From: Escherichia phage UPEC03
Reading direction: 5' to 3' (one strand)
Sequence record: MW250785
Length of the DNA: 64,000 nt
Of the stretch, positions 5,930-57,761 are shown one piece after another. The position numbers were made by a program, and so were the translations under genes. The notes below the pieces were generated by a model. That model was not told the origin of the DNA, ran no database searches, and saw nothing but the letters and a program-made list of their open reading frames with translations. How positions within the stretch are numbered: the stretch's first letter is position 1; each line of letters begins with the position of its first letter.

Positions 5930-6813
5930 ATCTGTTTATTACTGTAGGCGTACCAGGTAGCGGGAAAACTACATGGGCGAAAGAAAAAGCGCGTCAACTG
6001 GGGAACACGCTGACTGTTTCCCGTGACGATATCCGCAAAACCCTTTACTGTGCTGGCGGTGATCTGACTAACTACCGATTCACCGAAGAGAAAGAACTGT
6101 TTGTTTGCCGTGTGCAAGAAGATACAGTTCGTAATGCCCTGGCGAGTGGAAAGAACGTTATCGTTCACAATACCCATTTACACCAAAAAGATCATGATGT
6201 GTGGCGAGAGATCGCGAAAGAGTTCAATGCTGATTTCCATATCGAATGGATTGATGCCGATATCGTAGAACTCCTGAAACGCAACCATAAACGCGGTGTG
6301 AATGCTCTACCTGTTTCCCGTGTCTGGGCGATGTTCGAACAGTACCGTAAACTCCGTGGCTGGGTTCCGGCTATGAGCTATGCAGATCCGAGCAAACCGA
6401 AATGCGTTATCTTCGACGTTGACGGGACATTAACCAAAGTTGGACAACGTAGCCCGTATGACTTCACGAAGGTTATCAACGATCCGCCTAACCCTCCTGT
6501 TCAAGAACTGTTCAGGATGTATAAGGCCGCTGGTTATGCCTGTGTTGTTGTGTCTGGGCGTGAGGGTACTGCACAGTGCGCACATGATACCGCTGCAAGC
6601 CTGATCGGGTACGATATTGACCTGAGTGATGGTATCTACATGCGCGAAGAAGGTGATCATCGTCACGATTTCCACGTAAAAGAGCAAATACTTGTTGAAA
6701 AGATTCTCGATAAGTATTATCCTGTTCTTGCAGTGGACGACAGGGATACACCAGTCGGGATGTGGCGAATGAACGGTATCCCATGTTTCCAGGTTGATTA
6801 CGGCGACTTCTAA
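5926..6813 (+). CDS. pseT: polynucleotide 5'-kinase/3'-phosphatase
   Basis: Walker A GVPGSGKTT; HAD phosphatase motif VIFDVDGTL; length and layout match T4 Pnk. Confidence 0.9.
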   Translation: MNLFITVGVPGSGKTTWAKEKARQLGNTLTVSRDDIRKTLYCAGGDLTNYRFTEEKELFVCRVQEDTVRNALASGKNVIVHNTHLHQKDHDVWREIAKEFNADFHIEWIDADIVELLKRNHKRGVNALPVSRVWAMFEQYRKLRGWVPAMSYADPSKPKCVIFDVDGTLTKVGQRSPYDFTKVINDPPNPPVQELFRMYKAAGYACVVVSGREGTAQCAHDTAASLIGYDIDLSDGIYMREEGDHRHDFHVKEQILVEKILDKYYPVLAVDDRDTPVGMWRMNGIPCFQVDYGDF

Positions 6814-6819
6814 AAACAG

Positions 6820-6848
6820 TTGACAGTGAAGTGCGGGTGTGATAAGAT
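6820..6848 (+). promoter_or_regulatory. sigma70-type early promoter
   Basis: TTGACA (6820-6825), 17-nt spacer, TAAGAT (6843-6848); 25 nt upstream of RBS aaaggagaa and ATG 6874. Confidence 0.6.
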
Positions 6849-6873
6849 ACCCGCACAAACAAAGGAGAATATT

Positions 6874-7140
6874 ATGGTTATTCGTGAAAATGAAAATGTG
6901 ATGGTTGAACTGGGTGATCGTGTTAAAGTTGAGAATCCTGTTGAACTTCAACTGAAACTCAACCAGTTAGGCCAGCGCATTGCTGATAAAATTCCTGCTG
7001 GTTATACAGTGAAGATTGTCCGCGATGGTCAGTTCTCCTTCCTCCTGGGTATTTTGAGTCAACGCAACATCGTTGAACAACAGTTCGGGATTCAGTGGAA
7101 TCCGGTAACTAAATTCGTAACATGGGCGGCAGTATTATGA
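6874..7140 (+). CDS. hypothetical protein
   Basis: ORF with RBS aaaggaga; start moved from track 6820 to ATG 6874 downstream of the promoter. Confidence 0.55.
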   Translation: MVIRENENVMVELGDRVKVENPVELQLKLNQLGQRIADKIPAGYTVKIVRDGQFSFLLGILSQRNIVEQQFGIQWNPVTKFVTWAAVL

Positions 7141-7391
7141 GTGACAAAATCAGAAAGATCCATCAAGCATGGTTCTGTACTGAACCAACGATGCTTCGGT
7201 ATGGTTGTGTGTTTGGGTTGGTTGATAATGATCCGCAACAGGACATTGCAACAAGTCCGGTTGTTGAATACGCGATTCCGGCGAACAAATCGTTTGTTGA
7301 AGTAGTGACACGTTCAGGTACTACGTATCACATCGTTAACCCTGATAACGATTTCATCAAAGACATTCTGAAATATATGGATGACCGTTAA
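7137..7391 (+). CDS. hypothetical protein
   Basis: ATGA-coupled ORF between the previous gene and cd. Confidence 0.5.
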   Translation: MSDKIRKIHQAWFCTEPTMLRYGCVFGLVDNDPQQDIATSPVVEYAIPANKSFVEVVTRSGTTYHIVNPDNDFIKDILKYMDDR

Positions 7392-24210: not shown

Positions 24211-24264
24211 GTTTCGATATGTGTAATATAACAAAGCCCTCACCGAGAGGCAAGGGCTTTTTTG
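24211..24264 (-). promoter_or_regulatory. PeSL-like stem-loop/promoter cassette
   Basis: minus-strand reading: agccc-TTGCCT...-gggct hairpin, TATATT, ACACATATCGAAACGGAA leader. Confidence 0.55.
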
Positions 24265-26016: not shown

Positions 26017-28263
26017 TTAGATTTTGACTTCTTTTTCTTCCAGGACGATTTCACATTCGAATGATGTGGTTTCCCAGACTTTCCAGAAATCGGATGGAAT
26101 ATTATCTTCTTTCGGAAGAATATCTTTTGCAGCGATAGAAACTTTGGTTTCTTCGAAGTCCAGATCCGCGAACCATGCATGGGCTACTACAACACCGTAC
26201 ATTACGCGACTTAAACGGGCATTCAGTTTACGGACTTCCTGAATCGTTGCCTTTGTCTGCTTATCAAGATACTCGACTACCTGATCTTTGTCAAGCGCAT
26301 CCAGTTCAGATTTCACCTGATCGTAAGCCCACAGGATAATCAGGTCGCCGTTGTTCAGTTTCTTCTTACCTTCGTCACGTTTCGCGACGGTAGCCGCTAC
26401 AGCAGGAAGGGAGGAAACACCCTTGACTTTCACGTTCAGTTCTTTCGACATGTAAACATCAGTCGATTCTGTGCGCTCAACCTTCGGAGAGAACCCGTAA
26501 TCACGAATATCCTGTTCAGACAGCCATTCACCCGCTGCATCACCAAAGCGCTGTTTCAGCCCTTCTGCGTTGCGCAGTCCGATCGCGTTGTCACGGAAGA
26601 ACTTCATAACCTTCTGACGGCCTTTCAGGATTTCCAGACGCACGTTATCAGTCACGAACTCTTTACCGCTTAACCCGCGAGTCATGCCACGGTTAACCAG
26701 AGGCAGAGAGGTAAAGTCTACCAGTACCGACATACGGTCATCACCGATTTTTTCCAGCGGCTTGATAGTCAGGCCAGAAGCGCGAAGGTTTTTCAGTGTC
26801 GGAATATCAGTTTCCAGCGGCAGAACTTTCACGTTCACGATACCATCTTTAACGATGGTGAAGTTACGCACCTGCTTAGTTTCGATTTTTTCCGGCAGAC
26901 CGAATTCTTTCTGTTTGCTTTCTGGGATAGTCACATACCCTTCCAGATCCGTGTTGATGGAAATGTTAGGACGGGAACTGTTACCCACCAGATGTTTAAC
27001 CGATACTTTGGTTGTGGTCTGGGTAAATTTCGGTGTCCAGACTTCATGCGCTACCATTTGCGCCGCCAGTGCTTTACGTTCTTCTGGGATTGCAGCGTTT
27101 GCGATCTGTTCGGTCAGTTGATCCAGTGTATCATCTTCTTTCTGTACAGTCTGACGGCCTGTGCGGTTATACGCCCAGTGCTCAGAAGACAGGTCGATCA
27201 CTGTGTCAGTTTGTGCCAGCAGTTCGAGCGCATCAACCAGAGTGAACGCGTTTTCGTCTGGAACCATGTTGTAATCAATACCATCAACGAAACGCTGTGA
27301 TGGATCTACAACAGCCTGTGCAATCAGGTCTTTCGCGTTGGAGTAGTCCTGTTTGGTAAAGCAGTTGTCATACGCCTTGATCAGACGGACATCACCCAGC
27401 TTTTGAAGCACTTTCCATGCCAGATCAGGGTTCATTGTGTGCAGTGCATGATAAAGCACGACATACAGAACTTGCTGTTCGCTGGCGATGTTCGGATCGA
27501 ATCCGTCAACATCATTAATCGCGTTTTCACCCAGCGCCCAGATGTTTTTGATGTGTTCTGGAACTAGCACAACACCGTTTGCAGCGTTCAGGACATACAC
27601 GCACCCTTCGTCCAGGTAGATCGCATGGGTAGCATCAGCAACTTTGACTTCGATACGCGCGGAAGTCTGCGCGGTGATGATTTCGTTAAATGCTGGTTCG
27701 TATGCGTCGAAACCTTCAACGAATTTGTGCAATGCGTTGGTTGCTTCTGCCATTTTTTCCAGCAGAGGACGGTTTACATAATAACCGTATTCCAGGAACG
27801 CGATACTGTTGAAAGTCAGTGGCAGAACCGCACACGCTTTCAGAATATCATCGGTACGCCAGCAGTTATCATAACCATCAGTCAGGAAGATCAGGCTGTT
27901 CAGGTTGCCGTTTTCAGATTGCAGATCGGTAGCGATTTCCGCAGCCAGATTCAACGGCTCAACAAAGCCAGTACAACCCGTAGGTTTCAGGTAACGGTCG
28001 ATAGCCGCGCAGATGTTAGACAGGTCAGAGACATTGCTAACCTTCTCACCACGGAACACCGTGCCGTAATCGCCTTTGCTGGAGAAGTACAGGATCGAAA
28101 CGGTGTCATCCTGTTTAACCAGACTCGCCAGATTTGCTTTCAGGTGTTTACGGATCTTAGGCAGTTCGTTGTACATTGAACCGGATACGTCACACACGAA
28201 AACGTGGTTTGTCGGGGTTGGCTTCGATACAGCGTTTTTGAATTCGATATTTGTGATTGACAT
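26017..28263 (-). CDS. von Willebrand factor A (vWA) domain protein
   Basis: 748 aa; N-terminal MIDAS motif VFVCDVSGSM and later FLTDGYDN; long C-terminal region with no motif recognised. Confidence 0.7.
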   Translation of the reverse strand: MSITNIEFKNAVSKPTPTNHVFVCDVSGSMYNELPKIRKHLKANLASLVKQDDTVSILYFSSKGDYGTVFRGEKVSNVSDLSNICAAIDRYLKPTGCTGFVEPLNLAAEIATDLQSENGNLNSLIFLTDGYDNCWRTDDILKACAVLPLTFNSIAFLEYGYYVNRPLLEKMAEATNALHKFVEGFDAYEPAFNEIITAQTSARIEVKVADATHAIYLDEGCVYVLNAANGVVLVPEHIKNIWALGENAINDVDGFDPNIASEQQVLYVVLYHALHTMNPDLAWKVLQKLGDVRLIKAYDNCFTKQDYSNAKDLIAQAVVDPSQRFVDGIDYNMVPDENAFTLVDALELLAQTDTVIDLSSEHWAYNRTGRQTVQKEDDTLDQLTEQIANAAIPEERKALAAQMVAHEVWTPKFTQTTTKVSVKHLVGNSSRPNISINTDLEGYVTIPESKQKEFGLPEKIETKQVRNFTIVKDGIVNVKVLPLETDIPTLKNLRASGLTIKPLEKIGDDRMSVLVDFTSLPLVNRGMTRGLSGKEFVTDNVRLEILKGRQKVMKFFRDNAIGLRNAEGLKQRFGDAAGEWLSEQDIRDYGFSPKVERTESTDVYMSKELNVKVKGVSSLPAVAATVAKRDEGKKKLNNGDLIILWAYDQVKSELDALDKDQVVEYLDKQTKATIQEVRKLNARLSRVMYGVVVAHAWFADLDFEETKVSIAAKDILPKEDNIPSDFWKVWETTSFECEIVLEEKEVKI

Positions 28264-30223: not shown

Positions 30224-30760
30224 TCAGTATGCAATGTTTAATTTTGCAAATTTACCAAAATGTTTTATCGCTTCCCGATCGTATGCTTTTGCAGCCTCGT
30301 ATTCGTCACGATAGGAACCGATATGTTTAACCTTGCCGTCAATCTTTATCTGTGCAATGTAACGTATTCCAGTAGGTTGATCACGTACACATACACCCTT
30401 GAATCGACTGGTTGCTACTCTTCGTTTAGTCCGGTTCTGACAGTTTCGGGATTGATCCGCTTCACGCAAGTTATCAATCCCGTCGCCAGCCTCAACACCA
30501 TTTTTATGATCAATCACATCAGGCAGTTTTCCGGTTGCAACGTAGTAGATGATTCGATGACGTAGATATCCTTTGCTTTTGAAATAAACGCGGGTATATC
30601 CTCCTTTAATCTTCGAACCTACTTCCTTTCCGATCAAGTCAGAACGTTTGTGTGACGTTCGTATAATTGTCCCCGTTTGTATATCAACAGAAACAGTTTT
30701 AAGGAATTCGTCAATTCCTTTCTGTTCTTCTTCGATTGTTCTTAGTCCGTTGTGTGACAT
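30224..30760 (-). CDS. HNH homing endonuclease with AP2 domain
   Basis: HNH core RHRIIYYVATGKLPDVIDHKNGVEAGDGIDNLR; AP2-like FKGVCVRD...YIAQIKIDGK...GSYRDEYEAAKAYD; overlaps the methyltransferase gene 3' end. Confidence 0.7.
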   Translation of the reverse strand: MSHNGLRTIEEEQKGIDEFLKTVSVDIQTGTIIRTSHKRSDLIGKEVGSKIKGGYTRVYFKSKGYLRHRIIYYVATGKLPDVIDHKNGVEAGDGIDNLREADQSRNCQNRTKRRVATSRFKGVCVRDQPTGIRYIAQIKIDGKVKHIGSYRDEYEAAKAYDREAIKHFGKFAKLNIAY

Positions 30761-31665
30761 AACACCTTCTTGATTTGTTTTGCTATAGCCTCGATTACTG
30801 GTATTGAAACAGAATTACCTGCTTGTTTATACGCTTGCATCTTGCTTTTGTTGATAATAAACGAATCTGGGAAACCCTGCAAACGAAAACACTCACGGGG
30901 AGTAAGTCTTCGGGGGTTCTTTCCTTCCTGCAATACCAGACATTGAACACCATCTTTATAGTAATTTGCAGTGATAGTCCCAGTGTGCGTAGAATCGCTT
31001 GTGACGGCCTGATAACCGAAACCCTTACCGTTTGCCTTATTTCGTTCCTTACGCTCTCTAAAGCCCTTCCATGCGTTATCTGACAGGGTGAACGAATCAT
31101 CAGCATCTTCGAGGATGTCGCCTACGCGTGTAGGGGTACGCGGGGGAACCGGAAACGAAAAGAATACATCATCCAGGAAGCAGACAATAAACACGCGTTC
31201 CCGTCTTTGGGGTAGTCCGAAATCCTTTGTGTTCAGGCGTTGATAGAATACGTTATATCCTTCGGCCTCCAGAAGCCCGTAAATCGTTTTAAACGTCTTC
31301 CCCTTGTCATGGGTTAGCAGTTCAGGCACGTTCTCAAAGAACAACACACGGGGCTTTTTAGCGCGTATAATGCGGAGGATTTCGAAGAACACCGTACCGC
31401 GTACATCATCAAAGCCCAGTTTCAATCCGGCTTTACTGAACGCCTGACACGGGAACCCCGCGAGCAGGATATCATGATCAGGTACTTTGTTTTCATCAAT
31501 GGCGAATAGATCACCCTGTAGGTTATCATCGCCCCAGTTTTCGATATATGTTTGCTGTGCGAACTTGTCGATTTCAGACGTTAAAAGGCATTCGACACCG
31601 CCGAACGCCTTATCAAATCCTAATCGAACCCCGCCCACACCAGCGCAGAGGTCAATTATTTTCAT
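30742..31665 (-). CDS. DNA (cytosine-5)-methyltransferase
   Basis: 307 aa with C5-MTase motifs I DLCAGVGG, IV GFPCQAFS, VI FFENV, VIII QRRERVFIV and X AGNSV. Confidence 0.85.
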   Translation of the reverse strand: MKIIDLCAGVGGVRLGFDKAFGGVECLLTSEIDKFAQQTYIENWGDDNLQGDLFAIDENKVPDHDILLAGFPCQAFSKAGLKLGFDDVRGTVFFEILRIIRAKKPRVLFFENVPELLTHDKGKTFKTIYGLLEAEGYNVFYQRLNTKDFGLPQRRERVFIVCFLDDVFFSFPVPPRTPTRVGDILEDADDSFTLSDNAWKGFRERKERNKANGKGFGYQAVTSDSTHTGTITANYYKDGVQCLVLQEGKNPRRLTPRECFRLQGFPDSFIINKSKMQAYKQAGNSVSIPVIEAIAKQIKKVLCHTTD

Positions 31666-31931: not shown

Positions 31932-32164
31932 TCCGTTTTAATACCATGTCGGTATGCGTCAATCCCCAGCGGGGTAATCAGCAACCATGCTTTCGAATTA
32001 TCGTGATAGCCCGTTACCCTTCGAGCGTAACCTTTTTGAATCAGGGCATCACGCCCTGATTTGCTGGGTACGTCATCGAAATCTAAGTCTAGCACCTTAG
32101 TTGCATATCCGTAAAGTTTATACAGAACATCAATTTCAGCGCCGGACAATTTAGGATACATCAT
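31922..32164 (-). CDS. hypothetical protein
   Basis: 80-aa ORF. Confidence 0.5.
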   Translation of the reverse strand: MMYPKLSGAEIDVLYKLYGYATKVLDLDFDDVPSKSGRDALIQKGYARRVTGYHDNSKAWLLITPLGIDAYRHGIKTEWH

Positions 32165-33162
32165 TTGTAATACCCCACAACATGATCGCGGTATACGCGT
32201 TCGATGAAATCGTTCCAGAATTCGCGGTCAACTTCTTTCGGATATGTTGAAATCGCTGCAAGCCGTTCGACTTCGCCCATGACTTCTTCCAGCTTTTCCT
32301 GTACGGTTGCGAACGGTACGCCGCCAGCTTTAACCAGTTTCAGGAATGCGCTATCAGGCAGAGGATAAACGATATCACCATCTTTGTAAATCTGGATCAA
32401 CTGCATACCACCGCGCAACGCGTGACTTAAAGCCTTCCAGTCGATGCCGTTGTTGGCTTCTGCTTGTCGTGCGCGTTCTCCGTATTCATCCCAGAGTTTG
32501 TACACTGACTTACGCATTTCATCGGCTTTGATCGTGAACTGGAATTTACGCCCCAGCACTTCATAGAAGTCCTGACAACCAGATTTCATTGTCGTGTCGG
32601 TAACGAATCGGCAGAACTCGTTTGTAGGGAAACGATTCTTGATGTCAGACACTTTCACTTCACGCGTATAGCGTTTCATATCTGGTGTGAATTCCTGAAT
32701 ACCACCGATCGTTTCGGTTTCTTTCAGTACATCGACAACTTCGCGCAGTGCAGCCAGTCGGGAACCTTTCACACCATATTTTGCGGCTTGCTTGCGAACA
32801 TAACCGAACAGGCCAGTTAGTTCAGTGGTGTAAAAACGCCAGCGGTTAGCGCGGATATACTGCCAGATTTCAGAGTTAGCGATCAGCTTGTCATCCGAAG
32901 CGTGAAGCATATCGAGCGCTACGGTATCACCATCACACGCAAGGCTGATAAACTTAGTCAGACTATACAACTGACGATCAACGTCGTCTACGGTGTTTTT
33001 AGAGCTTTTATCGCCCGTGCTGGTGTCGATAGACTTCTTCGCAGTGCCTAACAGGATTTCGCGAGGATGAGGGAGATAGATCCCTTTGTAGTCTTTATCG
33101 CTTGTTGGTGTTTCCAGTCCGTAAAGATGGGATCCAAAAATCATTTCAGTAATCATTTTCAT
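32161..33162 (-). CDS. nucleotidyltransferase (pol-beta superfamily) of unknown specificity
   Basis: GS-x10-DxD signature FGSHLYGLETPTSDKDYKG; start moved to ATG 33162, which has RBS ggag and a TAATG overlap with the upstream stop. Confidence 0.55.
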   Translation of the reverse strand: MKMITEMIFGSHLYGLETPTSDKDYKGIYLPHPREILLGTAKKSIDTSTGDKSSKNTVDDVDRQLYSLTKFISLACDGDTVALDMLHASDDKLIANSEIWQYIRANRWRFYTTELTGLFGYVRKQAAKYGVKGSRLAALREVVDVLKETETIGGIQEFTPDMKRYTREVKVSDIKNRFPTNEFCRFVTDTTMKSGCQDFYEVLGRKFQFTIKADEMRKSVYKLWDEYGERARQAEANNGIDWKALSHALRGGMQLIQIYKDGDIVYPLPDSAFLKLVKAGGVPFATVQEKLEEVMGEVERLAAISTYPKEVDREFWNDFIERVYRDHVVGYYK

Positions 33163-33920
33163 TATACAAATCTCCAATAAAACCCTTTATGAGTTTTTCT
33201 TTTACCGTTACAGCATGAACTTACATGCCCTTTGTTATACCCCATTTCAACGGCTTCCACAATACCACCATTTAAAATAGTTTCTCTTTCTGTTTTGATA
33301 CATTTCATAATCAAAGGTTTTATCAATTCCGTCTTCTTTTGTGAAATATTAGCTAATGCAATTACATTTCTGATATCAGATTCACTCATTAAATCAGAAA
33401 TCTTCTTTCTTAACCATACATAGCCTTGACTTTTGGCAAGTTTGCCGGAGCAACATTCATGAATATGACTAGGGTTAAATCCACGCAATTTCATTTCTTG
33501 CCGACCGCCTAATATGATAATCTCGTCTCCTGTTTCAAGGTTGAATCCGACAACTGGAATTATTTGCCGTTCCGACATTTTCTTTCTCGCTTCTTTCGTG
33601 AATATTGTAAGAGATTTTAATTTTCTCGCGTCGCTCATTTGCGAAGATGTCGTTTTGTATTTCTTAGTATTATGAGACATACGGAAAAAAGCATATCTCA
33701 TTTTATCACCAGCATACTTAGCAAGTAGATGATGAGCAAGATAATGCTCTTTATATGTTAAATATACTAAATTTTCGGGTTCATCAGTACCACCTAATGA
33801 CTTAGCAACGATATGGTGTATATCATAACCGCGCTTTCTATACTTTTTCGAGTAACCTTTAGGTATATCTCTTCTTTTTGCCAATGTAATTAGTTGGTCG
33901 TAAATACGCTTATAGTTCAT
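33162..33920 (-). CDS. HNH homing endonuclease (Mob-like family)
   Basis: HNH motif YDIHHIVAKSLGGTDEPENLVYLTYKEHYLAHH; start at internal ATG 33920 with RBS ggag; paralogous to ORF 61728..62396. Confidence 0.65.
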   Translation of the reverse strand: MNYKRIYDQLITLAKRRDIPKGYSKKYRKRGYDIHHIVAKSLGGTDEPENLVYLTYKEHYLAHHLLAKYAGDKMRYAFFRMSHNTKKYKTTSSQMSDARKLKSLTIFTKEARKKMSERQIIPVVGFNLETGDEIIILGGRQEMKLRGFNPSHIHECCSGKLAKSQGYVWLRKKISDLMSESDIRNVIALANISQKKTELIKPLIMKCIKTERETILNGGIVEAVEMGYNKGHVSSCCNGKRKTHKGFYWRFV

Positions 33921-34547: not shown

Positions 34548-34603
34548 TATATAATACAAAAGCCCTCACGCGAACGCAAGGGCTTTTTTAATCTTTTATC
34601 AGA
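34548..34603 (-). promoter_or_regulatory. PeSL-like stem-loop/promoter cassette
   Basis: minus-strand reading: aaaaaagccc-TTGCGT...-gggctttt hairpin, TATTAT, ACACATACCGCATGAA leader. Confidence 0.5.
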
Positions 34604-35666
34604 GTCCCGTGAAAGCTACAACGATTTGATAGTGGTCATCGAAGAATTCCCCTTGTCGTTGTACGACCTCATGTAAGGGCATCCAGAACGCCTCTAACGC
34701 ATCGTCAGAACCGCCCATAATGCGGGGCAGACTACCATCATTGTTAGGCTCTAACTTGATGTACTGCGCCACAGTCGGTTTTGAGAAGTGTACGGAACGC
34801 TTCGGATGATCGAACAACATCGAATTGCGGATTGAACCACGGATAACCTTTTCAGGAACCTTGATCCGTACCTCTTCGAGCAGTTCGCGGATCGCACAAT
34901 CCAGGAACGTTTCATTTGCGTTTTTGTGTCCGCCGGGAAGGGCTAACGCGTCTTTACCTGGGGCGAACTTACGACGAATTACCAGCAGGTGATTGTTGCA
35001 CACAACCACACTATCACCCGTGCAACAGTTTAGCGCGTCGGGGTATGGGTAGTTTTTGAATTTCTCCAATTCGCTTTCCCATTTCTCGTATTCGTAGAAT
35101 AAACGCCAGAACGTGTCTTCCATCATCCATTTGTCGATATAATCAACGGTTGCTTGAGGAACAAAGCGCAACAGTTTCTTATCCCACCCGTTTTTATGGT
35201 TAAAGATAATCGGACGCAGATCGGTTGCTGATAGATCCTTGCCGTTAATCTGGACAGGTGGAACTGGTACGTGTGTCCATCCGAACGCTTTAAGCCAGTA
35301 TGAACCTGCATCTTTTTCGTAACCGTAGATAGCGATTTTGTCGCCTTTGGTTTCCCTGATAGCAGTACGAACAGAGGTTTTCCATTTCTCTTCGTTGTAA
35401 AGATAATCTGGAATGTGCTCAAACTGAACACGAACAACATCTTCGATCGGGAAGTTAGCGTTTAACCATGAGAAGATCATGGTTTGACGCTCACGCGCCG
35501 TCAGCGGGTTTAAAACGTTAGGGTAAGCATATGCTGAACCCAGAAGGATGTAAACGATCTTTGCTTCTCCGAGTGCTTTACGCACCATTGCTGCATGACC
35601 ATTATGGAAGGGTTGGAATCTGCCAATTACGACAGCTTTATCAAATTGTTTCATAACGTGCTCCAC
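34599..35666 (-). CDS. bifunctional NMN adenylyltransferase / Nudix hydrolase (NatV/NadM-like)
   Basis: 355 aa; HxGH motif GRFQPFHNGH at the N-terminus; C-terminal Nudix box GGHKNANETFLDCAIRELLEEV. Confidence 0.8.
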   Translation of the reverse strand: MEHVMKQFDKAVVIGRFQPFHNGHAAMVRKALGEAKIVYILLGSAYAYPNVLNPLTARERQTMIFSWLNANFPIEDVVRVQFEHIPDYLYNEEKWKTSVRTAIRETKGDKIAIYGYEKDAGSYWLKAFGWTHVPVPPVQINGKDLSATDLRPIIFNHKNGWDKKLLRFVPQATVDYIDKWMMEDTFWRLFYEYEKWESELEKFKNYPYPDALNCCTGDSVVVCNNHLLVIRRKFAPGKDALALPGGHKNANETFLDCAIRELLEEVRIKVPEKVIRGSIRNSMLFDHPKRSVHFSKPTVAQYIKLEPNNDGSLPRIMGGSDDALEAFWMPLHEVVQRQGEFFDDHYQIVVAFTGL

Positions 35667-35827: not shown

Positions 35828-36754
35828 TTATTTACGAGAATCGAAAATCACTTTACCAGCGTAATCAGAACCCATGACAGTTTGAGGTACACCGCCCTGA
35901 TATTTTTCCGCGATGGTCTGCTGAACATCAAGTTCTTTCCAGCGAATCATTTCTGGTGTAATGGTACGCTGCAACACGGCGTTCGCTTCGGCTTCTTTCT
36001 TAGCCGCATACAGACGGGCATCAGCATCACGCTCGTTAGCCTGTGCAGCATTGCTACGGGCTTCTTTATCGGCAATTGCCTGAACAACTGCCTGTTGAGC
36101 GATTTGCTCTTTACGTGCCAGTTCTGCTTTCTCTGCGTTCACCTGTTCTTCACGAATTTTCGTGTTTTCAACCTGCTTCTTGATCGCTTCCGGCAGGTCG
36201 ATATCCTGCAAGAATACCTGTTTCACGGTGTAACCGTAAGGGCGGGCATACTCTTCAACTTCCTGCTGGATCGCGATCTGTAGCTGGCTTTGAACTTCTG
36301 CATTATACAGATCCTGTGCTTTCGGTACAGATTTACCGAACTCACGGACAGTTGACAGAAGTTTTTCAGTCACATATTTATCCAGCGCCTGATCCTGACT
36401 ACCCGCATTGATACGGTTGATCGGGGCTTTGCTACCATCGAACTGTAACATCACGGTCATATCCACAGTGGATTTGAATTTATCCTGGGACGGAACCTGC
36501 AATTTGTCAAACTTCATTGCGATGTCTTTGGTGTTGAACACCTCGAAATCAGCCAGTGGATTTACCAGGTGGAAACCAGGCAGAACAGGCTTCGGTGAAA
36601 CTTTACCCATGAAGGTTTGAGTTTTTACCGTACCATCCTGAACGATAGTGTACGAGTTCGGAACCAGCCACAGAGCGGCGATTACGCCCAGAGCGATCAG
36701 TGTGGTTTTCTTCGGGTTGTTTACGATAGTGTTTAAGTTCATCATTATTTCCAT
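35828..36754 (-). CDS. SPFH/band-7 (prohibitin/HflC-like) membrane protein
   Basis: N-terminal TM helix, SPFH-like core, Ala/Gln/Glu-rich coiled coil; exact start uncertain (ATG at 36754, 36745 or 36742). Confidence 0.65.
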   Translation of the reverse strand: MEIMMNLNTIVNNPKKTTLIALGVIAALWLVPNSYTIVQDGTVKTQTFMGKVSPKPVLPGFHLVNPLADFEVFNTKDIAMKFDKLQVPSQDKFKSTVDMTVMLQFDGSKAPINRINAGSQDQALDKYVTEKLLSTVREFGKSVPKAQDLYNAEVQSQLQIAIQQEVEEYARPYGYTVKQVFLQDIDLPEAIKKQVENTKIREEQVNAEKAELARKEQIAQQAVVQAIADKEARSNAAQANERDADARLYAAKKEAEANAVLQRTITPEMIRWKELDVQQTIAEKYQGGVPQTVMGSDYAGKVIFDSRK

Positions 36755-43019: not shown

Positions 43020-44366
43020 TTAAAAGTTCTCTTCGACGAATGCAGCCAGTCGCCCACGATATACGGTATCCAGGATCACATGACTTGAATGACCGTACTC
43101 TTTAAGTTTTTCAACCGCATACACAAAGCCGTTGTTAACAGCAGTGTTGCGCGGGTTGTCAATCTGTTTAATGTTCCCGCATAGTATCAGAAGGGTGTTC
43201 TCACCGCAACGGGAAATGATGGATTTGATTTCGTGATTGCTCAAGTTTTGACATTCATCAACAATCAGAACCGAACCTTTACCCGGATCAGGATGCCCGA
43301 TTGAGCGCCCACGGAAGTAATACAGGCTAGGGAACTGGACAACGTTTTTCTCCAGCAGCCCTTCTACGTATTTGTCAACTTCCGGTTGATCCTTAAACAG
43401 AATGTTCAGGCTCGTAATACATGGTTCTACAGCAGGACGCAGTTTTTCGCCAAGAGTACCAGGTAAGAACCCGATTTCGCCCGACAGAGGGCTATCTGCC
43501 TTGACATACATCAGGTTTGCGAAGTGTCCCGCGTTTACCATGTGCATTGCACCAGCAACAGCCAGCATGGTTTTACCTGAACCCGCCGCGCCCATGATGG
43601 TCACAACGTCATTGTTTTTGTCCAGAATAGCATCAACGAATGACGCTTGCAGAGCATCGCGAGGCTGAATTGTTTTCATCAGCTTACGCTTTAACGCCTG
43701 TTCGTGCTTAATAGGCAACACTTCAAGCTGAAACTCTCCAGCATTCACCACACGCCCTACAATCTCACCACACGATAGAATGTATTGGTTAGGGTAGAAA
43801 TCCGCGTCAGGAAGCGATGAATACGTTATAACGGCAACAGGCCCGACATACTCCAGGACTTCAACAGTTTCCCAGAACAGAGGCAGGTCGATATAACCTG
43901 AATACAACACATCACTATCTTTCAGCGAGTCATCGCCAGTGTATTGAAGAACCGAACAACCTTTAGACATCGCGATCAACAGCATGTTAATGTCACGAGT
44001 CACCAGAGTTGCGCCCTGCTGAATACAAGTTGCAATGATCCGCGCATCCTGTTTATCCAGAGGGAATTCTTCGGTGCCGTCATAATCGACGATTTTCAGT
44101 GTTACGCTTTCCGGTACTGCTGGGTTCGATAAGTTTAACGAAACCCCTGTTTGGGTAATTGCTTCATAATTTTGTCCCAGGATTGCTTTGGACAAAAGCC
44201 GGATCGCCAGTCGTGCTTCATGAGCGGTTCGCTCTTTGCTTTTCAGGTGATCCAGTTCTTCCATCGTTGCAGCGGTGATAATGATTTCGCTGTCAGGTTC
44301 GATGTAAGAATAGATTGAATATGGGTTACTAATCAAAACATTGGTGTCTAATACGTATTTTGACAT
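43020..44366 (-). CDS. PIN-domain PhoH-like ATPase (PhoH2-type)
   Basis: N-terminal PIN-like YVLDTNVLI; Walker A GAAGSGKT; Walker B VLIVDECQN. Confidence 0.8.
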   Translation of the reverse strand: MSKYVLDTNVLISNPYSIYSYIEPDSEIIITAATMEELDHLKSKERTAHEARLAIRLLSKAILGQNYEAITQTGVSLNLSNPAVPESVTLKIVDYDGTEEFPLDKQDARIIATCIQQGATLVTRDINMLLIAMSKGCSVLQYTGDDSLKDSDVLYSGYIDLPLFWETVEVLEYVGPVAVITYSSLPDADFYPNQYILSCGEIVGRVVNAGEFQLEVLPIKHEQALKRKLMKTIQPRDALQASFVDAILDKNNDVVTIMGAAGSGKTMLAVAGAMHMVNAGHFANLMYVKADSPLSGEIGFLPGTLGEKLRPAVEPCITSLNILFKDQPEVDKYVEGLLEKNVVQFPSLYYFRGRSIGHPDPGKGSVLIVDECQNLSNHEIKSIISRCGENTLLILCGNIKQIDNPRNTAVNNGFVYAVEKLKEYGHSSHVILDTVYRGRLAAFVEENF

Positions 44367-48391: not shown

Positions 48392-48684
48392 CAGAATGTG
48401 ATCTCCGCAAACTGCATTCTACGCTCAATCGCATGGATAGCGTTATCACGCTGTTCTTTGTTTTCATATCCAGCCCAGGTAATCGGAGTTGAACAGATCA
48501 GGTGAAAAGTGATTGCTGGGTGTCTCTTCCCTTCAACAACGATTGTTGCATCATCTTCGATCCAGGTTACGTGATCCAGATTCACCGGATAGTTTCTTAC
48601 GGTAACAGTTTCACCAACCATAGGCGACACGTCCAGAATATCACGATCACGAACGTATGATTTAATACGAGATACGATTAACAT
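48391..48684 (-). CDS. hypothetical protein
   Basis: 97-aa ORF. Confidence 0.5.
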   Translation of the reverse strand: MLIVSRIKSYVRDRDILDVSPMVGETVTVRNYPVNLDHVTWIEDDATIVVEGKRHPAITFHLICSTPITWAGYENKEQRDNAIHAIERRMQFAEITF

Positions 48685-49838
48685 TATTTCAACTCCACTG
48701 CATATACATCGGTTTCAGGGGCTTTGTGTACGCGCATATCTTTACCACATACCGCATAAGCCGGACAGTTACGGCAACCGTTATGATCCTTGTTGCCCGT
48801 CAGTTCTTTACGGAACTGTTTTGTTTTCGGGTGTTCCCAGATATCCTTCACAAAATCTTCGGCTTCCAGAACATCCAGACCTTCTTCCCAGCCACCTTCA
48901 ACCCAACGTTCGGTAAACGAGCAAGGGAAGAACTGACCACGTTCATTAATGTAAGAGCTAAACATCGTCGCTTCACAGTCTTCGGCGTATTGCTTGTACT
49001 GTTCGAAGTTCGGGTGTCCCTCCATCGCTTCAACGAAAGCGGGGGCTGAACAGCTATCGAATCCAAATCCTACACCAGAATCGAGGCAATATTCAACAAG
49101 TTTTTTATATTGTTCGCGGGTAACGGTGTCCCAGTTCTTACCGCGTCCTTTTTGTTTCAGTCCCAGGAACACGATCGCGTTGACTTGTTTCAGGCGCGGA
49201 TCATTCTTCACGGCATCAACCACGTTAAACGCATCATCATAGGTTTTCGAGCTAACCATGAAGTGAAGGTTGATTTGCTGTTGTCCGGCTTCTGTCAGGT
49301 TCGCTACTGAGTCGAAAGCGACATCAAAACCAGCGTGTTTATAAACCGATACCGCAACAGCCCCAGCAACCGCCGCTAAACGCGCTGCAACGTCTTTTGA
49401 TACGTCAGCAATGGTAAGGTTCGGTACAATGCCTTTAGAACGCGCATACGCCATCATATCGAACATATCAGGGTTTGTTTGCCCCTGTGCATCAGCACCG
49501 AGTGCGCATTGAGTCAGCCAGGGCATTTTGTCGATGATTTTTTTGAAGTTGGCAAGATCCATGTTGAACCCGTTAGGGTTATTGGACTTGTAGCAGAACC
49601 CGCAGAGTTTACCAGCGGGACCATTACATTTGGTAGTGATCTCAACATCCAAGATTTCTGGGAATGGGGCATAGGTAGGATCAGTTTCGAACGATGTTCC
49701 CCAGCGAGCAAACTCACCAGTTTTAACGTTGAAATTGTAGTTGTACCAATTAGAGCGAGCGAAGCGCATATTACCCTGCTGGTAAATCATTAGCGAAGGG
49801 GCTTTCATTACAGTCTGTGCGCGGTCAATAATATCCAT
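48684..49838 (-). CDS. putative Fe-S / radical-SAM-like enzyme
   Basis: 384 aa; Cys cluster TTKCNGPAGKLCGFCYK (Cx7CxxC) near the N-terminus and C-terminal GCRNCPAYAVCG. Confidence 0.4.
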   Translation of the reverse strand: MDIIDRAQTVMKAPSLMIYQQGNMRFARSNWYNYNFNVKTGEFARWGTSFETDPTYAPFPEILDVEITTKCNGPAGKLCGFCYKSNNPNGFNMDLANFKKIIDKMPWLTQCALGADAQGQTNPDMFDMMAYARSKGIVPNLTIADVSKDVAARLAAVAGAVAVSVYKHAGFDVAFDSVANLTEAGQQQINLHFMVSSKTYDDAFNVVDAVKNDPRLKQVNAIVFLGLKQKGRGKNWDTVTREQYKKLVEYCLDSGVGFGFDSCSAPAFVEAMEGHPNFEQYKQYAEDCEATMFSSYINERGQFFPCSFTERWVEGGWEEGLDVLEAEDFVKDIWEHPKTKQFRKELTGNKDHNGCRNCPAYAVCGKDMRVHKAPETDVYAVELK

Positions 49839-50971: not shown

Positions 50972-51040
50972 GATATCCTCCTTCGTTTCGATGTGTGTAA
51001 TATAACAAAACCCCTCACCATAGACAAGGGGTTTCTTTAA
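50972..51040 (-). promoter_or_regulatory. PeSL-like stem-loop/promoter cassette
   Basis: minus-strand reading: aacccc-TTGTCT...-ggggtt hairpin, TATATT, ACACACATCGAAACGAAGGAGG leader. Confidence 0.55.
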
Positions 51041-52427: not shown

Positions 52428-52500
52428 GTTTTCCTTTCTCTGTTTCGTTTCGATGTGTGTAATATAACAAAGCCCCTGCATTGCTGCAAGGGCTTTTTTC
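52428..52500 (-). promoter_or_regulatory. PeSL-like stem-loop/promoter cassette
   Basis: minus-strand reading: aaaaaagccc-TTGCAG...-ggggcttt hairpin, TATATT, ACACACATCGAAACGAAACA leader. Confidence 0.55.
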
Positions 52501-52503
52501 ACT

Positions 52504-52812
52504 TTAATCGAATTTTTCTGGCAACTGGTCTACAAGTGCTTGAGTTTGATGAAGTTCTTCACTCAATTTATCACGATAATGAACCAATTCGCGGGTTCTT
52601 GATGCGGAATAGCTAATGAGTTTATCAGCGGTAGCGGTGTAACCGTAACCAGCACACGCGATTTCCAGTTTTGCGTTATCGCCGTTAGGTACGCGGATAT
52701 GAGCATACGCCAGCAAGTTTTTAACCGCTTGCAACAGTTCATGATCTTCTTTGCCGATGATAAACTGGTTTGGTTCTGCTGAATCCATATACAGTTCTTC
52801 GTCTTTGTTCAT
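52504..52812 (-). CDS. hypothetical protein
   Basis: 102-aa ORF. Confidence 0.5.
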   Translation of the reverse strand: MNKDEELYMDSAEPNQFIIGKEDHELLQAVKNLLAYAHIRVPNGDNAKLEIACAGYGYTATADKLISYSASRTRELVHYRDKLSEELHQTQALVDQLPEKFD

Positions 52813-53342
52813 TTTGCAGCCTTATACATTTCCAGGACGCGGTTCATGTGATCTTGAGATTGAGGCACACCCGCGAAGTTCAGTTTGATGAAGAATTCCA
52901 GACGATCCTTTTTGGTGCATTCATCCAGCCCCAGGGCAGGTAATGAAATGTTTTCAAAGGCTCGTTGTTCGTGTCGTGGTATTTCGTCCCAGAACAAACG
53001 GGAACCGTCCGGCATAGGAATCCCAATTTCACCTTCGTAGACTTTGATAATCGTCGTCAGGCGTTGTTTGCCGTCGATCACTTCTACCCAATGGGTTTCG
53101 TTGAACTGACTATCAACCGCGATCGCAATGATACCGCAAGGGAAACCACTGATCAGGGTAGTCAGAAACGCATCTTGCTCTTTCTGCGTCCACACATAGG
53201 GGCGCTGGTAAGATGGATTCAGATCCAGATCTTTATTCTTCCACCAATGCAGATAACTCCCAACCATGATCGCGTGATCGCGACTGCGAAAAGTTAACTG
53301 ATCGCGGATACGGTTATGAACCGGAATATCATCTTTAGACAT
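52809..53342 (-). CDS. DUF262 (ParB-like / GmrSD N-terminal-like) domain protein
   Basis: motifs NPSYQRPYVW and IDGKQRLTT; 177 aa with no DUF1524/HNH partner domain. Confidence 0.55.
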   Translation of the reverse strand: MSKDDIPVHNRIRDQLTFRSRDHAIMVGSYLHWWKNKDLDLNPSYQRPYVWTQKEQDAFLTTLISGFPCGIIAIAVDSQFNETHWVEVIDGKQRLTTIIKVYEGEIGIPMPDGSRLFWDEIPRHEQRAFENISLPALGLDECTKKDRLEFFIKLNFAGVPQSQDHMNRVLEMYKAAK

Positions 53343-53664
53343 GATTCACCACCCAGCCCAACAAACCAGTATTGATAGCCGCAACGGTAAGGCAAATCAC
53401 CGCCAACACCCGCGCGTTATGAACTTTGGTTTTCAGTTCTGCGATCTCCTGATCATTTTCACTTTCGAACTCTTCACGGGTTCCATAGTAACCAGGATCA
53501 GCAGCGGTTGCCGGACGAACTGCATCTTTTTCAACGATGGTTGCATAACCGCTCGTTACTTTCGTTGCTCCGTACCAGTCACCGCGATCGTTATTGATGA
53601 TCAGGTGATCACCCTTCGCGTTATGCTTCGACTTACCAATGACAACTACACGTTCACCATTCAT
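53335..53664 (-). CDS. hypothetical protein with C-terminal TM helix
   Basis: C-terminus VLAVICLTVAAINTGLLGWVV. Confidence 0.5.
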   Translation of the reverse strand: MNGERVVVIGKSKHNAKGDHLIINNDRGDWYGATKVTSGYATIVEKDAVRPATAADPGYYGTREEFESENDQEIAELKTKVHNARVLAVICLTVAAINTGLLGWVVNHV

Positions 53665-53671
53665 AATATAA

Positions 53672-53932
53672 TCACTCTTTCACGTTTTGTTGTAAGAACT
53701 CTAACAGCTTTCCTTCGGCCTGTAAAGCATAAAGTTTATTCAGCTTTGCGATATTTTCAAAGTCTGATTTTTCGCTGAACGACCAGACCCCATCATCGGA
53801 AACCAGCGCACCGATTGATACGCCAGTTTCAGGATCACGCGTCAACGCCAGCCCCAGGGGATGCAGGATATCTTTATTGATTTTCCAAATCAGCCCCAAT
53901 TGAGATAAGGTGTTGAAATCAACGTGACTCAT
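53672..53932 (-). CDS. hypothetical protein
   Basis: 86-aa ORF. Confidence 0.5.
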   Translation of the reverse strand: MSHVDFNTLSQLGLIWKINKDILHPLGLALTRDPETGVSIGALVSDDGVWSFSEKSDFENIAKLNKLYALQAEGKLLEFLQQNVKE

Positions 53933-55531: not shown

Positions 55532-55794
55532 TCAATATATCCCCAACGAATTTTTACGTTATCTTCTGACGCCGGACTTGTAGGAGTTGGGTATGGATAA
55601 CTTTGCGCTTCCCACAGATAAACAATGGCGTGTTTTGTCAATTCTTCGATAACTTCATCGAAAGTACCGACACTGGTTTGTAAAGGCAACGAGAAAGGTT
55701 TATCGTTGGTTTCTACTTGAGCGATTGGCCCATCTACCAAGATAACACGAACCGTTGTGTGCTCAGACATATGAGCATAGATTTTGTTTTTCAT
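55528..55794 (-). CDS. hypothetical protein
   Basis: 88-aa ORF. Confidence 0.5.
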   Translation of the reverse strand: MKNKIYAHMSEHTTVRVILVDGPIAQVETNDKPFSLPLQTSVGTFDEVIEELTKHAIVYLWEAQSYPYPTPTSPASEDNVKIRWGYIE

Positions 55795-56129
55795 GCGGGT
55801 ACATATTCCACTTTGACAGGTTTTGCAATAAGGCGTTCTTTGGTGAAGCCTTGCCCGTTACAGATATCACAAGTAACGTTGAAGTCTTCCATCTGATCAA
55901 CCCAGCCAGAATCCGGTAAGCCAGAAGGATACGTGTTAACACGCACAACTTCGAACCCTTTACCATCGCATTTCGGGCATTTGTGCGGGTACTGGGATTT
56001 AACCATACTCAGCAGTTGCCCCAGCGTTGTTGAACGATCGAAGCGTTCGACCAGTGCCATTACATCAGCAATACGAATCGAACCAGCATCAATAACGGTA
56101 TACAGGTTTTTCGGTACATTTGAGCGCAT
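55791..56129 (-). CDS. DnaJ-type zinc-finger protein
   Basis: CxxCxGxG repeats (CPKCDGKG, CDICNGQG); start at internal ATG 56129. Confidence 0.5.
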   Translation of the reverse strand: MRSNVPKNLYTVIDAGSIRIADVMALVERFDRSTTLGQLLSMVKSQYPHKCPKCDGKGFEVVRVNTYPSGLPDSGWVDQMEDFNVTCDICNGQGFTKERLIAKPVKVEYVPA

Positions 56130-56133
56130 AGTA

Positions 56134-56280
56134 TATTTCTCACTTAAAAATTTTTTTGATGAAAGAGAGGAACAATCCACCACCGAACATGATCCAGTAT
56201 CCCGCGCCGTCACCGTTAAACAGGACATACACAGCGACACCATAGCAAAAGATTTCCGCGATATTCAGTAAGTTTCTCAT
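56134..56280 (-). CDS. small TM peptide (48 aa)
   Basis: hand-found hydrophobic ORF with strong RBS aaaggaggg. Confidence 0.4.
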
Positions 56281-56510: not shown

Positions 56511-56585
56511 GATTGCCTCCTTTGTTTCGACACCCCTAATATAACAAAAGCCCCTGCACGAATGCAAGGGCTTTTTTCAAATATT
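56511..56585 (-). promoter_or_regulatory. PeSL-like stem-loop/promoter cassette
   Basis: minus-strand reading: aaaaaagccc-TTGCAT...-ggggctttt hairpin, TATATT, leader GGGGTGTCGAAACAAAGGAGG. Confidence 0.5.
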
Positions 56586-57137: not shown

Positions 57138-57761
57138 TCACCCATTATGTTTGAAGTATTCGATCTGACGCAGACGTTTTTCTGCTGCCTCTTTCGAATC
57201 ATATTCACCAAGTTCTTTCGTGCGATCATGGTTCAGCACAACCCACTTATCGCCGCGATGTTCGATGTGCTCCGTGATGTCTTCAACTTTCTTATCAAGA
57301 TCCAGCGGTTCAGCATCTTCCTCGATAATAGTCAAATCTACGGGCAGTGTCAACAGTCTTTTAACTCCGCTGATATCTTCGATGCGGGAATCATATGCGA
57401 GCGTTACGTGTGGTTTGTAATCGTCATAATCGTATGTTGCTCCAGCATCCATTGCATCTTTGAAGCGGCTATGGAGATAATCAGATTCCAGAACGCCCAC
57501 GATCGTATTACCGTATTTCGTTTCCCACTTCTCCACGTCAACCAGTCGGGCAGGTTCAGAGATACCGGAGGCAGGGAACAGATCAACCGTCTTACGGCTA
57601 TACACAATCGTTGTATGCAGTTTTGCAGCGGAAACAGGATTCTCTACACCCAGAAGTTTTTGCACCTTCGCGAGCGCTTCACAGGAAGCCTGATCGAACT
57701 TCGCACACATATAGATCCCCGGATCAACTACGGGTTTCGCTACTTCAATAAAACTTTTCAT
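57138..57761 (-). CDS. 57B: 2H phosphoesterase family protein (57B-like)
   Basis: two H-x-T motifs (LHTTIVYS, PHVTLAYD); lies downstream of 57A as in T4. Confidence 0.6.
   Translation of the reverse strand: MKSFIEVAKPVVDPGIYMCAKFDQASCEALAKVQKLLGVENPVSAAKLHTTIVYSRKTVDLFPASGISEPARLVDVEKWETKYGNTIVGVLESDYLHSRFKDAMDAGATYDYDDYKPHVTLAYDSRIEDISGVKRLLTLPVDLTIIEEDAEPLDLDKKVEDITEHIEHRGDKWVVLNHDRTKELGEYDSKEAAEKRLRQIEYFKHNG

Follow-up and report, generated by a model that had tools for sequence, protein, structure and literature searches.

The 177-residue DUF262 protein of a T4-like myovirus of the genus Pseudotevenvirus is a bare nucleotide-binding module, without a DNA-binding domain, a nuclease, or an effector, and it belongs to a large, old, and mostly viral lineage of DUF262 proteins that lack the DNA-binding domain known as ParBDB. 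Its gene lies in a 64,000-nucleotide stretch of phage DNA (termed "the window" below), and over 4 kb the source phage is identical to Cronobacter phage GAP161 at 96% of positions and to RB16 at 88%. The favored reading, to which a probability of roughly 0.35 is attached, is that the protein is a complete, selectively maintained minimal ParB-DUF262 "sensor" module that may serve as an early NTP switch interfering with DUF262-based immunity.

At least six anti-phage systems (GmrSD, BrxU, SspE, Dazbog, Menshen, and PD-T4-2) use DUF262 as their sensor/NTPase module, and the ways in which this domain senses DNA and transfers a signal are still poorly understood. The resemblance of the RB16 ortholog to this family was annotated in 2010 ("similar to protein of unknown function DUF262") and is thus already on record, whereas its function is not; one GenBank record labels an ortholog a "DefenseFinder protein." New here is a ParBDB-less, effector-less architecture of this known family that is widespread in viruses. 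Literature searches on phage stand-alone DUF262 proteins, anti-Menshen factors, and homologs of GmrSD inhibitors returned no study on the short DUF262 family in the library covered.

Domain architecture of the phage protein

A first-pass annotation, made from the sequence alone, had proposed a DUF262/ParB-like NTPase domain standing by itself without the DUF1524 nuclease, and both parts of that proposal are borne out by profile and by fold. The Pfam profile PF03235 (GmrSD_N / DUF262) matches residues 40-140 at 72.5 bits (E = 6.9e-20), above its curated threshold of 33.2, and is the only Pfam match in the protein, and the predicted structure has the ParB/Srx fold; the protein falls in the family phrog_1583 (E = 8e-58). 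The three motifs that define ParB-DUF262 domains, QRxxxW (motif I), DGxQR (motif II), and FxxxN (motif III) (PMC12065111), can each be located (Table 1), and in the family alignment Gly-158, Pro-160, and His-165, which follow motif III, are also at least 90% conserved. Gln-93 and Arg-94 of motif II align with Gln-101 and Arg-102 of BrxU, mutation of which abolishes both hydrolysis and defense (PMC8565348). As judged from these residues, the phage protein is predicted to bind NTP and probably to hydrolyze it through DGKQR.

The same comparisons set the protein apart from other branches of the ParB/Srx fold. Unlike canonical ParB CTPases (PF02195 / TIGR00180), it gives no match to PF02195 even at E ≤ 1, and its predicted structure lacks the helix-turn-helix region; a scan of the NCBIfam profiles returned zero matches. 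DUF262 motifs occupy the positions at which ParB has GERRxR and sulfiredoxin its Cys motif. The catalytic Cys of sulfiredoxin belongs to a GCHR motif in the phosphate-binding loop, and it has no counterpart in the phage protein because the corresponding loop is DGKQR. A search of the PDB with the single sequence gave nothing significant, a profile query being needed. The idea of a DNA mimic finds no support in the pI of 6.06, which is not extreme.

In NsnA, DndB, GmrSD, and SspE, the ParB-DUF262 domain is followed by the eight-helix DNA-binding domain ParBDB (PMC12065111). The phage protein ends at residue 177, only 22 residues past motif III, with a single predicted helix (residues 163-176) in that interval, and hhalign pairs its residues 21-164 with positions 25-173 of NsnA-like proteins of about 350 residues (99.9%) and no further. 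Profile comparison found no match to ParBDB, a helical domain of about 190 residues, in the protein, in the flanking ORFs, or in a six-frame translation of the window. Pfam scans found a DUF1524/HNH nuclease neither fused to the protein nor in the adjacent genes, no Pfam domain in either flanking ORF, and no ATPase or effector domain among ten neighboring ORFs. The initial suggestion that the protein corresponds to the N-terminal half of GmrSD thus stands for the DUF262 domain but overstates the likeness, as the protein is less than that half, with ParBDB also missing. A split gene was considered and rejected: against ParBDB, the 102- and 109-residue flanking ORFs gave hhalign probabilities below 1% (0.6% for the downstream 102-residue ORF) versus 99.9% for the positive control.

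A predominantly viral lineage of short DUF262 proteins

The phage gene is under purifying constraint, with dN/dS of 0.08-0.11 against the orthologs of Lw1, RB16, RB43, CfP1, and KP15. When 1.84 billion cluster representatives were searched exhaustively with a profile, 589 clusters were returned at E ≤ 1e-30, mostly viral, and every one of the best 150 of these 589 is 150-370 residues long with at most 74 residues past the match. The family comprises two size classes, one of about 165-185 residues and one of about 250-300 residues with an N-terminal extension. In the viral short forms (145-304 residues) the domain reaches the C terminus, with no more than 18 residues past the match at 79 of 80 viral loci. 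The nearest DGKQRL-bearing proteins of bacterial genomes are mostly NsnA-like proteins of 320-400 residues, which carry about 190 residues more, or proteins of 600-790 residues. In a neighbor-joining tree of the domain only, built without bootstrap and with a bacterial sample biased to the nearest relatives, 62 non-redundant viral and 12 bacterial-genome short forms form a pure clade that contains none of the 48 NsnA-like proteins. Some at least of these 12 bacterial-genome forms are prophage-borne, and homologs are present in Klebsiella and Citrobacter prophages.

BFVD contains comparable short DUF262-only proteins from giant viruses and from numerous phages, all without a functional name, and the hosts of the family are diverse, its members including phages of Bacteroides, Alicyclobacillus, and Moraxella as well as jumbo phages. 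A remnant of a larger enzyme, one of the readings offered at the outset, is rejected because of the low dN/dS (about 0.1), the invariant catalytic motifs, and the large, old, and monophyletic lineage of short forms.

About half of the viral members (loci L040-L080; L065:4611-5489, L078:4692-5495; P0019, P0021, P0026) bear an N-terminal extension of 60-130 residues, composed of a basic helix and then a conserved segment, PTRxYKVGDRV..G....V.EV...G.YY. In the 250-300-residue viral forms this extension has no Pfam match, and the AF2 pLDDT is below 50 over residues 31-111.

Genomic setting and transcription

The DUF262 gene lies within a run of about 12 small minus-strand ORFs that includes nudE and overlaps the ORFs on either side (Table 1). 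This block is bounded by stem-loop/promoter cassettes that resemble the promoter-early stem-loop (PeSL) cassettes known from RB49-type phages (PMC2839356, PMC4122927), and this resemblance suggests early expression of the block. Published PeSL cassettes come from RB49/phi1, the T4/PST pair, and nt-1/KVP40, the RB16/RB43 group being unmentioned in the 2014 paper. The promoter in the cassettes of the window, TTGCAG-N17-TATATT, was read by eye and overlaps the terminator hairpin. From the sequence, an early transcription unit that includes nudE and extends to the DUF262 gene likely starts at the upstream cassette and the sigma-70-like site associated with it. A further, near-identical GC stem-loop with GTTATATTA is found at 51007-51035 (-), and a weaker copy at 24224-24243.

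Table 1. Coordinates in the window of the DUF262 gene, its motifs, and the elements that flank it
Feature	Position	Strand	Remarks
177-residue stand-alone ParB-DUF262 protein, CDS	52809..53342	-	Ortholog of RB16p168 / GAP161_167
Motif I, QRPYVW (Q46-W51)	53190..53207	-	Q46, R47, V50 invariant, W51 at least 90% conserved (family alignment)
Motif II, DGKQR (D90-R94)	53061..53075	-	5/5 residues invariant; predicted gamma-phosphate / NTP-hydrolysis center
Motif III, FIKLN (F151-N155)	52878..52892	-	F151, N155 at least 90% conserved
Downstream 102-residue ORF	52504..52812	-	ATGA overlap with the DUF262 stop at 52809-52812, translationally coupled; phrog_15764
Upstream 109-residue ORF	53335..53664	-	8-nt overlap with the DUF262 start; phrog_7472
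GC-rich stem-loop, then GTTATATTA	52469..52496	-	PeSL-like terminator/early-promoter cassette closing the DUF262 transcription unit
Upstream PeSL-like stem-loop/promoter cassette	56546..56575	-	Other boundary of the ORF block
Sigma-70-like site	56334-56307	-	With the 56546..56575 cassette

Gene neighborhoods across the family show no conserved gene partner for the phage DUF262 gene, which would accordingly act alone. When the four neighbors on each side were clustered by BLAST at 80 viral loci, representing 22 clades at 60% identity, no neighbor family occurred in more than 2 of the 22 clades, and pairwise comparison of the flanks in the window, RB49, an Erwinia phage, and a Bacteroides phage (DAC22) revealed only the DUF262 gene in common. 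The downstream 102-residue ORF is confined to clades 0-1 in this clustering, and conservation of the upstream 109-residue ORF is limited to the RB16/KP15 group.

Several features of the surrounding genes may be recorded here. The downstream gene is modular, encoding 102 residues in the window, RB16, and GAP161 and 304-319 residues in Lw1, CfP1, and KP15, and the C-terminal 90 or so residues of the long forms (L009:5531-6490, L012:5522-6481, L013:5510-6424) are common to the 102-residue ORF; the extra portion of about 215 residues has no match in Pfam or the PDB, and its coding sequence is absent from the window. The same ORF block encodes a DUF7415 protein at 53672-53932 (-) (E = 3.6e-12) and, at 55791-56243 (-), a 150-residue protein with a weak match, under the Pfam cut-off, to the DnaJ-type CXXCXGXG zinc finger. 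At 57138-57761 (-), some 3.8 kb upstream from the DUF262 gene, lies a gene for an Acb1 anti-CBASS protein (PF23474, E = 4e-49), which occupies the position of the gene annotated 57B in RB16.

Relationship to known DUF262 and ParB-fold proteins

On the evidence of defense-system profiles, the closest defense relatives of the phage protein are NsnA of Menshen and PD-T4-2A, not GmrSD. Among PADLOC models, those for NsnA (1.4e-15) and PD-T4-2_A (3.4e-12) score best, followed by SspE (2e-3), with the GmrSD-type mREase_IV at just 0.025, and the match to the NsnA model covers only positions 45-199 of its 385. The GmrSD-like character assigned at first therefore extends to the shared Pfam domain PF03235 and not to the nearest family. 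With NsnA and PD-T4-2_A the phage protein shares the DGKQR form of motif II in a ParB-DUF262 domain with motifs I-III (PMC12065111), and its nearest bacterial relatives are NsnA-like. Unlike NsnA, it does not bear a C-terminal ParBDB of about 190 residues, and it falls in a separate clade. Moreover, nsnA always precedes nsnB (ABC ATPase and DUF3696) and nsnC (inPIN and effector), whereas the phage gene has no such neighbors; PD-T4-2, similarly, couples DUF262 to a HEPN protein (PMC10952713), and no HEPN-type neighbor accompanies the phage gene.

The large members of the family represent a more distant paradigm. GmrS/GmrSD, BrxU, and SspE, type IV restriction and PT-sensing enzymes of 560-820 residues, cut or nick DNA and combine a middle helical domain, ParBDB or GmrSD-M, with an HNH/DUF1524 nuclease, whereas the phage protein has neither in its 177 residues, and its likeness to GmrSD, BrxU, and SspE is remote (profile E of 1e-6 to 2e-4). 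Closer in general form are GmrS1, of the two-gene type IV system of ECOR17 (PMC12373910), and DndB, which are DUF262/ParB-type proteins without a nuclease and which work with other components; both, however, are bacterial, longer, and encoded in operons with their partners, and DndB retains a C-terminal ParBDB-like domain. A lone ParB/Srx fold in a phage protein also recalls sulfiredoxin and the short single-domain ParB-CTPase-fold proteins of phages, but the latter have about 100 residues and were surveyed by PF02195, with DUF262 unmentioned.

DNA methylation and a possible role in counter-defense

Among the genes of the window is one for a complete C5 cytosine DNA methyltransferase (PF00145, E = 3e-92), which lies at 30742-31665 (-), 21 kb from the DUF262 gene. 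Its presence implies that the phage DNA contains ordinary cytosine and carries partial 5mC methylation. Pseudotevenvirus and Krischvirus have neither dCMP hydroxymethylase (gene 42) nor glucosyltransferases (PMC2993671 Table 4; PMC12115623). Orthologs of the methyltransferase and of the DUF262 protein are co-inherited, with 174 and 172 records, respectively, at 60% identity or more and host genera alike, this co-occurrence within the Pseudotevenvirus/Slopekvirus group counting as a single evolutionary event. In RB49, in Erwinia phage pEp_SNUABM_01 (L023), and in a prophage (L020), a methyltransferase gene is only 1-4 genes away from the short DUF262 gene, which in the prophage stands between Dam-like and Dcm-like genes. 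Adjacency as a property of the whole family is unsupported, methyltransferases being rare in a Pfam scan of 128 unbiased neighbors, and the link between methyltransferase and DUF262 is only a lead, restricted to a few enterobacterial lineages.

The adjacent methyltransferases (L020:3911-4780 and 6298-7251; L003:1951-2667; L004:1393-2073; L023:3306-3986), from an enterobacterial prophage, RB49, and Vequintavirinae-type phages, belong to unrelated families. One ortholog of the C5 methyltransferase of the window is annotated "bsuRI modification methylase," and an HNH_3 endonuclease ORF (30224-30760, -) lies directly downstream of the gene in the window.

Some DUF262 defenses are known to sense methylation. 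BrxU cleaves 5mC DNA (PMC8565348), and in the DUF262 system Dazbog the cytosine-methylase activity of the phage is the trigger, loss of the methylase allowing escape (bioRxiv 10.1101/2022.08.27.505566); the DUF262 genes are essential to defense by Menshen and by Dazbog (PMC10952713). By methylating its own cytosines the phage enzyme would provide escape from restriction-modification, and the same methylation would expose the phage to GmrSD enzymes of the BrxU type, to Dazbog, and possibly to Menshen or PD-T4-2. A bare sensor domain, made early, might then interfere with those DUF262 sensors, either through contact with the DUF262 domains of the host proteins or by competing for the step, dependent on nucleotide or on DNA, by which the effector is licensed. 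The phage protein would in either case be a switch dependent on nucleotide and would work by contacting other proteins, not by cutting DNA itself.

Counter-defense against modification-sensing DUF262 immunity is accordingly named as the most likely role, speculative and tentative as it is, because of the homology to immune sensors, the early accessory setting with acb1 nearby, and the rationale provided by self-methylation. A related proposal, in which the bare domain is a viral mimic of the immune sensor domain that disables BrxU/GmrSD-type systems, Dazbog, Menshen, and PD-T4-2 and so shields self-methylating phages, must be regarded as doubtful. Three considerations weaken the case for counter-defense. 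A known interface for a dominant-negative effect is lacking: AlphaFold 3 predicted neither self-association of NsnA nor contacts between NsnA and NsnB/C (PMC12065111), and BrxU dimerizes through linkers and C-terminal parts (PMC8565348) that the bare domain does not have. The hydrolysis residues are conserved more strictly than a passive decoy should require, and an enzyme or a true switch would fit this pattern equally well. The family, finally, spans phages of very different hosts.

Alternative roles

A bare ParB-type domain could instead be an NTP-dependent helper or regulator of a phage enzyme that modifies or processes DNA, with the DNA methyltransferase as the obvious candidate, by activating the enzyme or loading it on double-stranded DNA or by timing its action. 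ParB176, which has no DNA-binding domain, activates the thymine dioxygenase 5mYOX176 on double-stranded DNA in this manner (PMC13229309), phages are enriched in fusions of ParB-fold and methyltransferase domains (PMC12704722), and the stand-alone relative DndB regulates a DNA-modification operon; the nearby methyltransferases of RB49, the Erwinia phage, and the prophage, and the co-inheritance of the C5 enzyme, point in the same direction. The 21-kb separation in the window, the lack of a conserved neighbor over 22 clades, and the rarity of methyltransferases among the unbiased neighbors, with those that are adjacent coming from unrelated families, make such a role unlikely. The precedent is also imperfect, as the 5mYOX-associated ParB has a canonical nucleotide-binding domain and a C-terminal dimerization domain, is encoded beside its enzyme, and remains functional when its NTP site is mutated (PMC13229309), whereas the phage DUF262 protein has neither a dimerization domain nor an adjacent partner and its NTP site is invariant. 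Single-domain enzymes of the ParB/Srx fold such as sulfiredoxin, SerK, and SbnI suggest that the protein might act autonomously, transferring a phosphate or nucleotidyl group from NTP to a protein, a small molecule, or the end of a nucleic acid as the phage takes over its host; its sequence, however, is firmly that of DUF262, all studied members of which are DNA-associated NTPase sensors, nothing in it is equivalent to the catalytic Cys of sulfiredoxin, and the gene context offers no candidate substrate, so that this reading is judged improbable.

The protein might also be a sensor of the phage's own exclusion or defense system, detecting foreign or competing DNA and signaling to an effector elsewhere in the phage or the host. 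DUF262 proteins without a nuclease are required in Menshen, Dazbog, and PD-T4-2 (PMC10952713), as is GmrS1, which likewise has no nuclease, in the type IV system of ECOR17 (PMC12373910), and the prophage homologs and the "DefenseFinder protein" label would be in keeping with such a function. The known sensors nevertheless keep ParBDB and a conserved adjacent effector gene, neither of which the phage family has, and the DUF262 gene is near-core in strictly lytic T4-like phages, where it lies among early accessory genes; a phage-borne sensor is therefore considered decidedly improbable. Least credible, and indeed very improbable, is a decoy for classical GmrSD or a decaying remnant of it. The common Pfam domain and the existence of GmrSD inhibitors in T-even phages (PMC12373910) lend some substance to the decoy, which had been raised in the first-pass annotation, but without dCMP hydroxymethylase and glucosyltransferases a Pseudotevenvirus makes no glucosyl-hmC, the substrate of GmrSD, the C5 methyltransferase implies that the phage DNA is built with ordinary cytosine, and the profile scores favor NsnA over the GmrSD-type model; the selection and phylogenetic results given above speak against the remnant.

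Implications

Whatever its role, the short lineage, with its intact catalytic site, offers a natural minimal construct for the nucleotide cycle of DUF262, and its members are candidate antagonists by which phages might counter DUF262-based immunity. If the protein is a mimic of immune sensors, the viral lineage of 589 clusters would constitute a large and unrecognized anti-defense family; if it is a helper of DNA-modifying enzymes, it would extend the recently discovered theme of ParB as an enzyme activator. Either role would assign a function to a near-core gene of T4-like phages of Klebsiella, Enterobacter, and Cronobacter that are therapeutic candidates.

Other genes of the window

Several other minus-strand genes of the window encode proteins with recognizable domains. 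These include a 748-residue VWA-domain protein (26017-28263), an RNA-repair nucleotidyltransferase of the RlaP family (32161-33177), a fusion of cytidylyltransferase-like and NUDIX domains (34599-35666), an SPFH/Band 7 protein (35828-36754), a PIN-PhoH fusion (43020-44366), and a SPASM-domain protein (48684-49838), the RB16 ortholog of which is annotated as a putative radical SAM protein.
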